Source: Escherichia phage wV7
Sequence record: NC_019505.1
Length of the DNA: 64,000 bases
Strand: one strand, 5' to 3'
The notes under the pieces are model-generated. The model saw only the letters and a list, made by a program, of their open reading frames with translations. It made no database searches and was not told where the DNA came from. The translations under genes were made by a program, and so were the position numbers. Shown piece by piece: positions 7,401 to 40,998 of this stretch. The number at the start of each line of letters is the position of its first letter. Positions within the stretch are counted from its first letter, which is position 1.

Positions 7401-7430
7401 ATAATACCACGGTTTGAACTTGTTGTAAAC
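7401..7430 (-). promoter_or_regulatory. T4-type early promoter
   Basis: Minus strand GTTTAC -35, about 17-nt spacer, TGgTATTAT extended -10; AACAACTTTGTGAAA upstream element. Confidence 0.6.
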
Positions 7431-30467: not shown

Positions 30468-30941
30468 TTATTTGAACGATTTAACGTACTGAATAGAACC
30501 CTTACTATTCACAAAGGCAATTTTACCATTTTTATTATACATGGTAGCAGTACGCTGATAACCATAGGTTTGTTTACCAGATTGATAACCAACTAATGCA
30601 AAATTATCTTCACCCATTTTATTCTGTTTAGCGCGAATGCGTTCATGACCATGTGCCATAAGAACCTTAGCATCACCAGTTGCAATGGATCGACGAGTTT
30701 TTTCATCTTCAACTGCATTAACAAAGTCGTCAAATGAATCAAATTTAGCATGAGATTTATTATACAATTTTCCATCTACTGCATAATTATATCCCTGTAC
30801 ATCCATCTCAACTTCTGTACCATCATCCAATACAGCAGTAATTTTTTGACCTTTTTTAAATTTCAAAAGATCAGTAAAAGATTCAGCAATAATTTGAGAA
30901 TTAATAGCTGCTTCAGTGATAAATTCTTGATATGTTTTCAT
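30468..30941 (-). CDS. Internal head protein-like, with capsid targeting sequence
   Basis: 157 aa; N-terminus MKTYQEFITEAA is the T4 internal-protein leader with an L/I-x-E prohead-protease site; sits directly downstream of denV. Confidence 0.7.
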   Translation of the reverse strand: MKTYQEFITEAAINSQIIAESFTDLLKFKKGQKITAVLDDGTEVEMDVQGYNYAVDGKLYNKSHAKFDSFDDFVNAVEDEKTRRSIATGDAKVLMAHGHERIRAKQNKMGEDNFALVGYQSGKQTYGYQRTATMYNKNGKIAFVNSKGSIQYVKSFK

Positions 30942-30950
30942 GGGTTTCCT

Positions 30951-31367
30951 TTAAATGTAAATATTTTTACCGTAATACTTATACCAATGCGGTTTCATTA
31001 AAATTTTTTCATCAAGTCGTTGTTGACTCAATTTAATAGCTGATTTGCATGGATTATAATCATTTTTCCATTCTATTGGAATATCGCTGATGTCAGGAAC
31101 TTCAGTATCTTTTATACTGAACCCGCGTTTTAAGCATTCCGTTATAATGTCTAATTGACGCTTTCGCAAAAATTCTAACTTATCGTAAAAGAACGTAACA
31201 TGACCAGAACCTAAAATAAACTCGGAAGATATTTTAAAATCTTTAACGCGCTTACCGTTTGCCACATGCTTACGAACTATACCAAAAACACGCGGCAATT
31301 CACGGTATTCTGCGATTAAATGTTGATCAGCAAGTTCAGATACTAAAGTCAAATTAATACGAGTCAT
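30951..31367 (-). CDS. denV: Endonuclease V (pyrimidine dimer DNA glycosylase)
   Basis: 138 aa; [17 protein letters not shown]...WYKYYGK closely matches recalled T4 endo V with several substitutions. Confidence 0.9.
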
Positions 31368-31426: not shown

Positions 31427-32395
<969 letters not shown>

Positions 32396-37194: not shown

Positions 37195-37270
37195 TGGTCG
37201 AGGCAGTAGGGATCGAACCTACGACCTAGGACTTAGAAGGTCCTTGCTCTTCCTTCTGAGCTATGCCCCG
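37195..37270 (-). tRNA. tRNA-Arg (anticodon UCU), CCA encoded
   Basis: Hand-folded cloverleaf: acceptor CGGGGCA/TGCCTCG, anticodon loop CTTCTAA, T-loop TTCGATC. Confidence 0.8.
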
Positions 37271-37274
37271 TAAT

Positions 37275-37350
37275 TGGGGTGACCGATGGGAGTCGAACCC
37301 ATGACTACGAGAATCACAATCTCGAGTTCTACCAACTGAACTACGGTCAC
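37275..37350 (-). tRNA. tRNA-His (anticodon GUG), CCA encoded
   Basis: Acceptor GTGACCG/CGGTCAC, anticodon stem CGAGA/TCTCG with loop TTGTGAT, discriminator C; no encoded G-1. Confidence 0.7.
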
Positions 37351-37464
37351 ATTAATACCTACTCCAACAATCAAGATGTCTTCACACGAAATTAAGAGAA
37401 GAGTGATCAGTTCAACCCCTATAATCGCGTCAAGTAGATATTAATGTGACAGTTGTCACAAATT

Positions 37465-37539
37465 TGGCGGACGTGATAGGATTCGAACCTATAACCAATC
37501 GCTTAACAGGCGATCGCTCTGCCATTGAGCTACACATCC
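37465..37539 (-). tRNA. tRNA-Asn (anticodon GUU), CCA encoded
   Basis: Acceptor GGATGTG/CACGTCC (one G-U), anticodon loop CTGTTAA, T-loop TTCGAAT. Confidence 0.75.
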
Positions 37540-37543
37540 AAAT

Positions 37544-37630
37544 TGGTGGGGAGTGGTGGAGTCGAACCACCCGAGTCGCAATGACAATGAATTTACAGTC
37601 CACACCGCTACCTCTACGGGATAACTCCCC
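37544..37630 (-). tRNA. tRNA-Tyr (anticodon GUA), long variable arm, CCA encoded
   Basis: Acceptor GGGGAGT/ACTCCCC, anticodon loop CTGTAAA, variable-arm hairpin GTC-ATTGC-GAC, T-loop TTCGACT. Confidence 0.7.
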
Positions 37631-37642
37631 TAATTCATAATT

Positions 37643-37717
37643 TGGTGGCCCTGGGTGGAATTGAACCACCATCTGGCGATTATGAGTCGCTTGCTTGAAC
37701 CTTCCAGCTACAGGGCC
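37643..37717 (-). tRNA. tRNA with CAU anticodon (Met, or Ile by T4 analogy), CCA encoded
   Basis: Acceptor GGCCCTG/CAGGGCC, anticodon loop CTCATAA, T-loop TTCAATT. Confidence 0.75.
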
Positions 37718-37718
37718 T

Positions 37719-37794
37719 TGGTGCTGATTGACGGAATCGAACCGCCGACCTTCTCATTACAAGTGAGTTGCTCTACCTACTGAGCTAAATCAGC
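37719..37794 (-). tRNA. tRNA-Thr (anticodon UGU), CCA encoded
   Basis: Acceptor GCTGATT/AATCAGC, anticodon loop CTTGTAA, T-loop TTCGATT. Confidence 0.8.
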
Positions 37795-37799
37795 AAAAC

Positions 37800-37889
37800 T
37801 GGCGGAGGTGATAGGATTCGAACCTATGAATCGCCGGAGCGACTGCCGGTTTTCAAGACCGGTGCATTCAACCACTCTGCCACACCTCC
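37800..37889 (-). tRNA. tRNA-Ser (anticodon UGA), long variable arm, CCA encoded
   Basis: Acceptor GGAGGTG/CACCTCC, anticodon loop CTTGAAA, long variable arm, T-loop TTCGAAT. Confidence 0.8.
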
Positions 37890-37891
37890 AG

Positions 37892-37965
37892 TCTCCATAC
37901 AAGGATTTGAACCTTGGACCTCCTGATCCCAAATCAGGCGCTCTACCAAACTGAGCTACACGGAG
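37892..37965 (-). tRNA. tRNA-Pro (anticodon UGG), CCA not encoded
   Basis: Acceptor CTCCGTG/TATGGAG (two G-U), anticodon loop TTTGGGA, T-loop TTCAAAT; followed by CT then next tRNA. Confidence 0.75.
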
Positions 37966-37975
37966 TAAATTAAAT

Positions 37976-38049
<74 letters not shown>

Positions 38050-38054
38050 AAATT

Positions 38055-38141
38055 TGGTGCGAGAAGTGGGACTCGAACCCACAAGGAAATCATTCCGCAG
38101 CATTTTAAGTGCTGTGCCTTTACCAATTTGACCATTCTCGC
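38055..38141 (-). tRNA. tRNA-Leu (anticodon UAA), long variable arm, CCA encoded
   Basis: Acceptor GCGAGAA/TTCTCGC, anticodon stem CAGCA/TGCTG with loop CTTAAAA, T-loop TTCGAGT. Confidence 0.8.
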
Positions 38142-38142
38142 G

Positions 38143-38215
38143 CTGGGAATAAAGGACTCGAACCTTTGCATCTAGCAGTCAAAGTGCTATGCCTTACCAA
38201 CTTGGCTAATTCCCA
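38143..38215 (-). tRNA. tRNA-Gln (anticodon UUG), CCA not encoded
   Basis: Acceptor TGGGAAT/ATTCCCA, anticodon stem TAGCA/TGCTA with loop CTTTGAC, T-loop TTCGAGT; abuts tRNA-Leu. Confidence 0.8.
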
Positions 38216-38312
38216 ATTATTAACAAAGGCTCTCAAGCAAGAACCCTTGATGATAGAGGGTATTAATCAGTGCGGTATGAGTTAATAATAACAAATAATT
38301 CTTAAAGCATAT

Positions 38313-38600
38313 TTACCATTTATGATAATACATATTTACGATGCACTCAAGACCCAAAGGATTCTTGAAAATATCATATTCAAGAGGACCTTTTTCTGTT
38401 TCAATAAAGAAATCAAAATTTACTGTATTAAATTTACGGTCTTCCTTCACTAATTTAACCTGAGAAGATGAACGGTCAATGTAAACCTTTTCAACTTCAA
38501 AACATGTTAAAATGCCATAATCATCAATCAAGGCTTTAGCTGCTTCTTGATCATATTTATATCCATTTTCAATGGACGATACTTTAGCATAAAGAATCAT
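38313..38600 (-). CDS. Hypothetical protein
   Basis: 95-aa ORF upstream of tRNA cluster. Confidence 0.5.
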   Translation of the reverse strand: MILYAKVSSIENGYKYDQEAAKALIDDYGILTCFEVEKVYIDRSSSQVKLVKEDRKFNTVNFDFFIETEKGPLEYDIFKNPLGLECIVNMYYHKW

Positions 38601-38602
38601 TA

Positions 38603-38983
38603 TTACCCTTCATCAACAATAGTATGAGTGTGGGCATTTACAATTTGCCACCAATCAAAGCGATTAGAACCATACATTGGTTTGTTCTCATTTTCTTTGA
38701 TAATGTCACGGAGTTCATCTTCGGTAGCAGCTTTCGCGATTAAATCAGCATATCCACCGCGAGGATAATAATTATCACCTGCAAAAAGTAAAAAGTTTGG
38801 TTTAATGTTATTGAACTCTTCAAGAGTAATAACTGTTCCACCAGGTTGAACAATATCTACATAACTATATCCTAATTTTTGAGCAGCATCTACTGCTTCA
38901 AGCAGGGTATCATGAGCCCATCCAATTTGGCAATCTGGCTTTTCAGATGGATTAGCCTGATAATCTGCATATACTTTATACAT
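38603..38983 (-). CDS. Hypothetical protein
   Basis: ORF 38603-39022; start probably internal Met (MYKVYADYQ...). Confidence 0.5.
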   Translation of the reverse strand: MYKVYADYQANPSEKPDCQIGWAHDTLLEAVDAAQKLGYSYVDIVQPGGTVITLEEFNNIKPNFLLFAGDNYYPRGGYADLIAKAATEDELRDIIKENENKPMYGSNRFDWWQIVNAHTHTIVDEG

Positions 38984-38984
38984 T

Positions 38985-39170
38985 TTACTCACCTTTAGAA
39001 ATTTTATCCATAACGATAGCAATTAAACCAATTAAAAATGCTACTACAAGTGAAAATACATTTTCTGCTGTAGTTAATAATCCGCATATAAATCCAACAA
39101 ACATTGAAAAACTAAAAGCGGAAGCAGAAATTGCAATAGCAACATTTCGAATTAATTCACAGCGTTTCAT
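38985..39170 (-). CDS. Small membrane protein
   Basis: ORF 38985-39230; true start MKRCELIRN... (61 aa), upstream codons are a translated early promoter. Confidence 0.45.
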   Translation of the reverse strand: MKRCELIRNVAIAISASAFSFSMFVGFICGLLTTAENVFSLVVAFLIGLIAIVMDKISKGE

Positions 39171-39198
39171 TTTATTCTCCTCAGTAGTTGATAGGGTA

Positions 39199-39228
39199 AT
39201 AGTATCACTACTAAAACCCCGTGTAAAC
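39199..39228 (-). promoter_or_regulatory. T4-type early promoter
   Basis: GTTTAC -35 and TGaTACTAT extended -10; AACAACTTTGTGAAATTATTTTA upstream element. Confidence 0.6.
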
Positions 39229-39240
39229 AACTTTGTGAAA

Positions 39241-39498
39241 TTATTTTAAATCTTCTAATCGTTTCTTCATCTTAGAACCATTTTTAGCGATTTCTCCTGC
39301 GTCAGAGCATAATGCTAAAAGTGCTTTAACTTTAGTTTGGTCTCCTTTAAAAGACGAAGGATCGACTGCAGCAGCAAGTTCTTTAATACGAGAGAAAAGA
39401 CGCTCAGCTTCAGCTAAAGCCATTCCAAGCTTTACTTCCATACCATGAGAAGATTCAGTGATAATAGTTTCTGTAGCAAACTCTTTATAAGTTTTCAT
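39241..39498 (-). CDS. Internal head protein-like (ipI position), with capsid targeting sequence
   Basis: 85 aa; N-terminus MKTYKEFATETI; own early promoter; adjacent to 57B as in T4. Confidence 0.7.
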   Translation of the reverse strand: MKTYKEFATETIITESSHGMEVKLGMALAEAERLFSRIKELAAAVDPSSFKGDQTKVKALLALCSDAGEIAKNGSKMKKRLEDLK

Positions 39499-39533
39499 TT
39501 TATTTTCCTAAATTAATAAATGTGTTGATGGAG

Positions 39534-39563
39534 ATAATATCACTTCTCCATCATCGTGTAAAC
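39534..39563 (-). promoter_or_regulatory. T4-type early promoter of ipI-like gene
   Basis: GTTTAC -35 and TGaTATTAT extended -10; same upstream element. Confidence 0.6.
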
Positions 39564-39575
39564 AACTTTGTGAAA

Positions 39576-40272
<697 letters not shown>

Positions 40273-40273
<1 letters not shown>

Positions 40274-40998
40274 TATAGTACCTTTAGTGTATTTTTAATT
40301 TTAGAAAAAAGTTCTTCAAGAGAACCATCGTTTGTAATTACTAAATCACCATCACGAATTGGCAATCCAGCTTCTGTAATATGTGTATCATTGGATTTTT
40401 GACCAGGACGAACTACATGAATTACTGTAGCACCCATCGCCCTAGCCGCATCCATTTCATGATCTTGACGAGTATCAGGAACGATATAATAATCATAACC
40501 TGAGTTAAATTTATCAAGATAATCTAAAGCAAATAATTTTACCCAGTACATGCGGTCGAAGTTATTAACAATCAAATCCGTACCTAGGGCTTGCATCAGA
40601 CGACGGACTGACCATTGATCTTCAATATTATTTATAACGTCAATAATCTTGTTAAATGCTACGGAATTAACTGATTCTTTTCCTTCGTCATCAAAAACAA
40701 ACACACCTTTAATTGGGCTTTTACCATTAAGATAGCAAAATGCTTGTTCCATAATTGTGATTACTTCTAATTTAGTCAGATTTAAATTAGTCTCACGATC
40801 ATAGTCAATTCCTTCAAACTCTTTACGAGTTAAGCAAGGATAGTCAGTGTTTGCTGCAAATACTCCCCATGCATAAGCCAATGCATCCTTAATAGGACCA
40901 GCAAGTTGGTATTTAACTGCAGAATAATTGCTCATGATAAAATCAGCAGTAGTATCTTTTCCACTACGCTTTACACCGCTTAAAAAGATTAGTTTCAT
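40273..40998 (-). CDS. 1: Deoxynucleoside monophosphate kinase gp1
   Basis: 241 aa from internal Met; P-loop GVKRSGKDT; matches T4 gp1 length. Confidence 0.88.

Follow-up and report, generated by a model that had tools for sequence, protein, structure and literature searches.

Which gene occupies the ipI position in the genome of Escherichia phage wV7, and what might its product do? An earlier, sequence-only reading of the 64,000-nucleotide (64-kb) stretch of DNA analysed here (the window) drew attention to an 85-amino acid open reading frame (ORF) adjoining 57B and interpreted its product as a divergent form of the T4 internal protein IPI that may act against a different host defence. Our analysis confirms the location of this ORF, which is encoded on the minus strand at a locus that is syntenic with T4. 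However, the ORF is not a divergent ipI but ip5, a member of the T-even internal-protein class, and it has replaced ipI as a non-homologous cassette. The gene itself adds nothing new: ip5 is a known gene whose name and annotation date back to the 1990s, its locus is known to be polymorphic, and the mechanism by which cassettes are swapped there has been published. The question that the locus raises is instead what Ip5 does in place of IPI.

The ip5 coding sequence spans positions 39241..39498 of the window on the minus strand, from an ATG start codon to a stop codon at 39241..39243. It is preceded by a Shine-Dalgarno sequence, AGGA, at 39506..39509 (minus), located 7 nt 5' of the ATG as read from the sequence. 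The translation of the ORF is MKTYKEFATETIITESSHGMEVKLGMALAEAERLFSRIKELAAAVDPSSFKGDQTKVKALLALCSDAGEIAKNGSKMKKRLEDLK, and the ORF list contains no opposite-strand ORF of at least 30 amino acids that overlaps it. The protein matches the phrog_3499 'internal head protein' profile (E = 3.7e-50) over 85 of 85 positions, and tblastn identified ip5 at 80% identity or above in about 267 phage records, about 248-249 of which were at least 95% identical. Together, the profile match and the conservation of the sequence in about 267 records indicate that ip5 is a real gene and not a chance ORF.

Existing annotation is consistent with this assignment. The RB51 orthologue (97% DNA identity) is annotated as 'Ip5, internal head protein; similar to Ip5 from T6, T2, RB15 and RB70 and RB69ORF127c', and the T2 and RB70 proteins, to both of which the protein encoded here is 95-96% identical, carry the UniRef label 'Ip5'. 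Homologs from teqskov and Sf24 are 100% identical to it. In other phage records the gene is named Ip5, ip5, or ipV, and its carriers include T2, T6, RB15, RB70, RB51, AR1, ime09, and Yersinia phage PST. Over the 801 bases that we tested, the window matches E. coli O157 typing phage 7 (KP869105, genus Tequatrovirus) at 100% identity; the record of that phage gives the ip5 product only as a 'hypothetical protein'. Many other T4-like phages, among them RB51, AR1, Sf23, and ime09, match at 94-98% identity.

The Ip5 family is tiny when viewed against protein diversity at large. When 1.84 billion representative proteins were searched exhaustively with HMMER, three family members only were recovered, and there are therefore no distant relatives from which Ip5 could be annotated. 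Scans of the protein against Pfam and NCBIfam assigned no family; DUF7890 was considered and rejected because its match (E = 0.081) fell below the cut-off. Comparison of the Ip5 sequence with PDB entries returned chance matches to designed helical proteins alone (E > 0.5).

The genes of this region are arranged in the order 2, 3, 1, 57A, 57B, ip5, tRNA.4, tRNA.3, tRNA.2, and tRNA cluster, which is the order of T4 with ip5 in the ipI slot. The upstream neighbour, 57B (39576..40031, minus), forms a conserved left flank that is syntenic with T4 and RB51, and its product was identified as Acb1 (Pfam PF23474, E = 2.6e-60). An internal-protein gene and a cytoplasmic anti-defence gene therefore adjoin directly at this locus. 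Acb1 is an anti-CBASS cyclic-nucleotide phosphodiesterase, and in phage records the 57B product is mostly labelled 'RNA ligase' or 'hypothetical'. The downstream neighbour, tRNA.4 (38985..39170, minus), forms the conserved right flank and encodes, from an ATG, a 61-amino acid membrane protein (phrog_1692, E = 1.3e-34; annotated in KP869105 and RB51).

The ORF list, with TTG starts, gives tRNA.3 as 38603..39022 (minus, 139 amino acids) and tRNA.4 as 38985..39230 (minus, 81 amino acids); public annotation uses internal ATG codons for both (126 and 61 amino acids, respectively). The short form of tRNA.4 is the more plausible of the two because the TTG extension would cross the gene's own promoter. 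Further downstream, the tRNA cluster (37195..38215, minus) comprises 11 genes (Arg, His, Asn, Tyr, Met(CAT), Thr, Ser, Pro, Gly, Leu, and Gln), and the equivalent of Met(CAT) is annotated as tRNA-Ile in T4 and RB51. The cluster lacks a segB-type homing endonuclease; that of T4 comprises 8 tRNAs and segB, and that of RB51 comprises 9 tRNAs and a homing endonuclease.

As had been noted in the sequence-only reading, ip5 has an early promoter of its own. A promoter scan places this T4-type element at 39562..39534 on the minus strand (TTTACA-N17-TATTAT, with TG before the -10), and it fits the early-promoter consensus TTTACW-N17-TAYWAT described for the PST/T4 pair (PMC4122927). DNA alignment shows no difference between the block upstream of this promoter and that of the T4 ipI promoter. 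A 9-bp stem-loop at 39526..39553 (minus), with arms AUGAUGGAG and CUCCAUCA, overlaps the -10 of the promoter (minimum free energy of -14.7 kcal/mol, z = -2.0 by RNA folding) and was not scored as an intrinsic terminator because no T-run follows the stem. No late promoter was identified directly upstream of ip5, and a late-promoter motif, TATAAATA, is located at 40629-40636 inside gene 1.

A repeat search revealed that ip5 is bracketed by two copies of a 58-nt direct repeat that are 86% identical and spaced 335 nt apart, each of which contains a stem-loop of 9 or 10 bp together with an early promoter. The upstream copy (39534..39591) constitutes the left boundary of the internal-protein cassette. 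The downstream copy (39199..39256) is identical to the block 3' of T4 ipI and holds the end of ip5, a stem-loop, and the tRNA.4 early promoter (TTTACA-N17-TACTAT; 39227..39199, minus). The stem-loops of the repeats are only moderately stable (z of about -2), and a scan scored no site resembling an intrinsic terminator. An Rfam scan of positions 38300-40100 identified no known RNA element and yielded just one chance snoRNA match that was below threshold.

The possibility that the flanking repeat is specific to the ip5 locus was rejected, as its 19-nt core, TTTCACAAAGTTGTTTACA, occurs five times in the window when up to three mismatches are allowed, relative to 0.06 copies expected. All five copies are on the minus strand (positions 7424, 19930, 35790, 39222, and 39557). 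The core is therefore a general upstream/-35 element of T4 early promoters, and its copies represent dispersed homology for recombination.

Alignment of the ip5 locus with the T4 ipI locus showed near identity that reaches past the end of 57B and covers the promoter block, a complete loss of similarity soon after the leader codons, and a return to near identity at 'ATTTCACAAAGTTGTTTACA', 3' of the stop codon, that extends through the promoter and start of tRNA.4. ip5 is a non-homologous cassette that has been swapped in between conserved promoter/stem-loop blocks, and this mechanism has been described for T-even internal-protein loci. According to Arbiol et al. (2010), Repoila (1994) observed promoter elements resembling PeSLs (promoter-early stem-loops) at the two variable internal-protein loci.

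At the protein level, the internal-protein leader pointed out in the sequence-only reading is present as MKTYKEF, with aromatic residues at Y4 and F7, and supports assignment to the internal-protein class. A regular-expression scan identified leaders of the MKT[YF]xEF type in just two ORFs of the 64-kb window. Residues 4 and 7 were defined as necessary for capsid targeting in the capsid-targeting sequence (CTS) of T4 IPIII, and the prohead protease gp21 cleaves after L/I-X-E (PMC9026906). The predicted Ip5 propeptide, comprising residues 1-15 (MKTYKEFATETIITE; 39454..39498, minus), combines a CTS with an I-T-E prohead-protease motif, and is followed by the predicted mature protein, Ip5* (residues 16-85; 39244..39453, minus), with 70 amino acids, a mass of 7.5 kDa, and a pI of 9.2.

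Several observations bear on the position of the cleavage site. I13-T14-E15 fits the gp21 motif, and ATE10 does not have L or I at P3. The sequence ITE/SSHG (the slash denotes the predicted site) is invariant in every Ip5 variant, even in one whose whole leader is MQTYQTFITE (10 amino acids). Further, the T4 IPI* chain in 2JUB covers residues 20-95 and starts directly after ITE19. We infer that gp21 cleaves Ip5 after E15, since ITE fits L/I-X-E, ITE/SSHG is invariant, and IPI* begins after its own ITE. Additional L/I-X-E motifs, LAE at residues 28-30 and IKE at residues 38-40, are located within predicted helix 1; if gp21 cuts at LAE or IKE, mature Ip5 would differ and be shorter than 70 amino acids.

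The protein had also been described as Ala/Lys-rich and helical, and both descriptions hold. Lys (12) and Ala (11) are the two most common of the 85 residues, followed by Glu and Leu (9 each). AlphaFold2 modelling with a 7-sequence alignment predicted helices only (mean pLDDT of 85), which extend up to residue 44 and then from 54 to 63 and from 67 to 84, such that the mature protein is predicted to be all-helical. Confidence exceeded a pLDDT of 90 over residues 20-85 and was 56-58 over the leader (residues 1-19). An earlier run with a 5-sequence alignment gave the same picture with lower confidence. The amphipathic periodicity of the helices is only weakly significant relative to shuffled sequences (p of 0.12 and 0.02) and was therefore given no weight here. 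Fold searches with the model returned only generic helical/coiled-coil matches and a variant of Ip5 itself, and because these matches are generic the structure provides no functional clue. The mature sequence is indeed short at a predicted 70 amino acids, but this is not a distinctive property given that T4 IPI* comprises 76.

The statement that the mature part cannot be aligned to T4 IPI was likewise substantiated, and the data indicate that the two proteins are not divergent forms of one another. Pairwise BLASTP aligned residues 1-22 of Ip5 with residues 1-26 of IPI, corresponding to the leader (E = 0.002 for a single comparison), and returned no alignment, and hence no high identity, in the mature region. 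T4 IPI matches phrog_4363 (E = 1.8e-48), a family to which Ip5 has no match. In phmmer searches of PDB sequences, 2JUB was detected with IPI as the query but not with Ip5. IPI* folds into two beta sheets with flanking helices at the termini (PMC3012670), and the predicted folds therefore differ, with an all-alpha model for Ip5 and an alpha/beta structure for IPI* (2JUB). T4-type IPI was detected in 291 phage records; at 80% identity or above, Ip5 (about 267 records) is about as common among sequenced T4-like phages as IPI (about 280 records).

The broader distribution of the family was examined by tblastn, which identified a paralog with about 51% identity to Ip5 at the e/denV locus of another 228 phage records. 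Ip5 proper and this paralog almost never occur in one genome (508 places in 495 records), which suggests that they are functionally interchangeable forms or markers of two lineages. The UFV13 paralog (YP_009290394; RB69ORF127c type; 93 amino acids; UFV13 sequence L004, 2501-2782) has 51% identity to Ip5 and shares its PHROG family, helix pattern, and leader, but differs in its location at the other internal-protein locus, between e and denV, and in its C-terminal extension. UFV13 also encodes a 99%-identical IPI at the 57B/tRNA.4 locus. A more distant Ip5 homologue (42% identity) is encoded in a metagenomic contig (L007), where it immediately follows 57A and Acb1/57B. The presence of this homologue beside Acb1 and of the 51%-identical paralog at e/denV indicates that the Ip5 family behaves as a mobile internal-protein cassette.

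Tandem arrangements were also identified. In IME537 (L005, 1830-2397), ip5 is followed by a second, unrelated CTS-bearing gene (77 amino acids; phrog_8111; MKTFKEFINE...), and the early-promoter block recurs exactly both between the two internal-protein genes and upstream of ip5. The annotated 99-amino acid coding sequence of this second gene starts inside the promoter and was probably called too long. Within our window there are two internal-protein genes only. The second (30468..30941, minus) encodes a CTS-bearing protein of 157 amino acids (MKTYQEFITE/AAINSQIIAE...) that matches phrog_3155 'internal virion protein' (E = 1e-101), and is located downstream of denV (30951..31367) and the e lysozyme gene (31427..31921). 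In T4, the interval between e and denV is instead occupied by ipIII and ipII, and the second internal-protein locus is therefore also rearranged here.

Published work provides the context in which the function of Ip5 can be evaluated. IPI* inhibits GmrSD of E. coli CT596 (PMC3012670), and IPIII is required for infection of ECOR17, with a CTS-less form of it being active when produced inside the cell (PMC9391042). Ip1, Ip2, and Ip3, which alone among these proteins have known targets, each inhibit a different GmrSD type IV nuclease, without cross-protection, and have only the leader in common (Silas et al., 2025; PMC12373910). The suggestion in the sequence-only reading that the protein may be aimed at a different defence than IPI agrees with this one-to-one pattern. 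In the same study, T2 and T6 stayed sensitive to the nucleases that Ip2 and Ip3 inhibit although both phages carry Ip5, so that the target of Ip5 differs from those of Ip2 and Ip3 and may lie outside the GmrSD family altogether.

Considering these observations together, ip5 is an alternative internal-protein gene, present in place of T4 ipI, and we regard it as probable that its product serves as an injected stoichiometric inhibitor of a first-response host defence. Under this proposal, recombination between promoter/stem-loop blocks would swap, add, or remove internal-protein genes. Ip5 would be made from its own early promoter, and the late motif in gene 1 may add late read-through transcripts. 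The MKTYKEF leader would direct the protein to the prohead scaffolding core, and the gp21 prohead protease would cut it after ITE15. The 70-amino acid, basic, all-helical Ip5* would then stay in the DNA-filled head, be injected with the genome, and act as a stoichiometric, first-response inhibitor of the host defence. Judging from Ip1, Ip2, and Ip3, its likeliest target would be a GmrSD-like, modification-dependent nuclease (type IV) whose subtype is not inhibited by any of these three. The sequence comparisons establish the identity of the gene, its locus, leader, promoter, and repeats, the boundaries of the cassette, and the absence of homology to IPI, and from these we infer packaging, the cleavage position, injection, and anti-defence activity. 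Our confidence in the parts of this proposal is uneven: the identity of the gene as ip5 and its internal-protein class are almost certain, packaging of Ip5 into the head and its cleavage are highly likely, an anti-defence role is reasonably probable, and a type IV nuclease as its target is a tentative suggestion.

A first alternative, which we consider possible but unlikely, is that the packaged and injected Ip5 has a target outside type IV restriction. Candidates would be a different first-response defence, for example BREX-associated nucleases, hmC-directed DNA glycosylases, or retron- or toxin/antitoxin (TA)-type systems, or else a host-takeover target. Several published results are in line with this alternative. 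When ip4-10 were evaluated against GmrSD groups active against T-even phages, no reproducible inhibition was observed (Silas et al., 2025; PMC12373910), and T2 and T6, both of which carry Ip5, are still restricted by GmrSD-ECOR21 and GmrSD-ECOR17 (PMC12373910). The predicted helical bundle of Ip5 is also unlike IPI*, and Alt, another packaged T4 protein, has a non-restriction role (PMC9026906). However, all three internal proteins with known targets act on GmrSD-family enzymes, and the diversity of the GmrSD family far exceeds the 15 groups that have been sampled (PMC12373910).

An improbable alternative is that Ip5 is mainly a structural or physico-chemical component of the head, involved in core assembly or in neutralising DNA, with no specific host target. 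This would be compatible with the basic character of the mature form (13 K+R versus 10 D+E), and with the presence of Ip5 or its paralog in 495 phage records; the 95-100% identity of Ip5 in most carriers (about 249 records) could just as well stem from a housekeeping function there. Further, T4 IPIII mutants exhibit head-assembly aberrations and internal proteins co-purify with gp22 (PMC9026906). On the other hand, internal-protein genes are non-essential, and unrelated sequences replace each other at one site. A generic charge role would also not need a well-ordered, conserved (predicted) fold with invariant surface residues, and each internal protein of known function is an anti-defence protein.

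Far less probable is that Ip5 is an ordinary cytoplasmic early protein with a relic leader that is not packaged. The early promoter, along with the absence of a late promoter directly upstream of ip5, would fit such a protein, and no experiment or virion proteomics on Ip5 was found in the literature searched. Nevertheless, the leader and ITE site are kept across variants that differ elsewhere, the product of T4 ipI, a gene with an identical promoter block, is packaged, and TATAAATA in gene 1 (40629-40636) could supply late read-through transcripts. Finally, the view of Ip5 as a T4 IPI orthologue that has diverged strongly yet still inhibits GmrSD of CT596 is largely refuted and scarcely credible, since, despite an identical locus and a similar leader and size, similarity ends at residue 22, the PHROG families and predicted folds are separate, the DNA alignment reveals abrupt replacement instead of gradual divergence, and IPI and an Ip5-family paralog are present together in UFV13. 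Bair and colleagues reportedly found in 2007 that T2 and T6 are restricted by CT596, which also counts against such an orthologue.

If Ip5 is indeed an injected inhibitor, its significance would lie in its target. Carriers of Ip5 include the model phages T2 and T6 as well as O157 typing phages and therapy-candidate phages, and the target of Ip5, if found, would explain part of the differences in host range among closely related therapeutic and typing phages. The target might also reveal a currently hidden defence system, a question that is already recognised in the field. It is conceivable, although we consider it doubtful, that the Ip5 family (the 57B-locus form and the e/denV paralog; 495 records) represents a widespread injected inhibitor of a defence outside the tested GmrSD subtypes that acts via a small helical bundle unlike characterised anti-restriction proteins. 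If true, T-even internal proteins would have a fourth specificity class, which is possibly the first to be directed against a non-type-IV system.

The relationship of ip5 to known systems can be considered at several levels. The Ip5 proteins of T2, T6, RB15, RB70, RB51, AR1, ime09, and PST are products of the same gene (95-100% identity over 85 amino acids), which in all of them shares its locus, leader, promoter, and flanks with the gene described here. Variants differ by few leader substitutions (Y4F, E10K, and I12T) and by indels of 1 to 3 residues in an inter-helix loop.

With respect to its organization, the ip5 cassette resembles the PeSL cassettes of RB49/phi1 and PST/T4, in which repeated copies of an early promoter and stem-loop likewise flank a small non-essential gene and in which the gene content of close relatives differs exactly at such boundaries. 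Unlike those of PeSLs, the stem-loop of ip5 is without a T-run and was not scored as a terminator. The PeSLs of RB49 and the T-even internal-protein elements are analogues and not homologues, with the latter built on T4 early promoters (Arbiol et al., 2010).

With respect to function, T4 IPII and IPIII, the inhibitors of GmrSD-ECOR21 and GmrSD-ECOR17, are like Ip5 in that they are CTS-bearing, non-essential proteins of a hyperplastic internal-protein locus and in that they are injected, as Ip5 presumably is; their mature sequences are unrelated to Ip5 and their genes in T4 are located at the e/denV locus. T4 IPI differs from Ip5 in its alpha/beta fold, as opposed to the predicted all-helical fold of Ip5, and in its PHROG family, and the mature domains have no detectable similarity. 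Both mature proteins are basic and of comparable length (76 versus a predicted 70 amino acids), however, and IPI shares with Ip5 the position between 57B and tRNA.4, the promoter block, the leader type (MKT[FY]KEF ... ITE/), and, presumably, a life cycle of packaging, cleavage, and injection.
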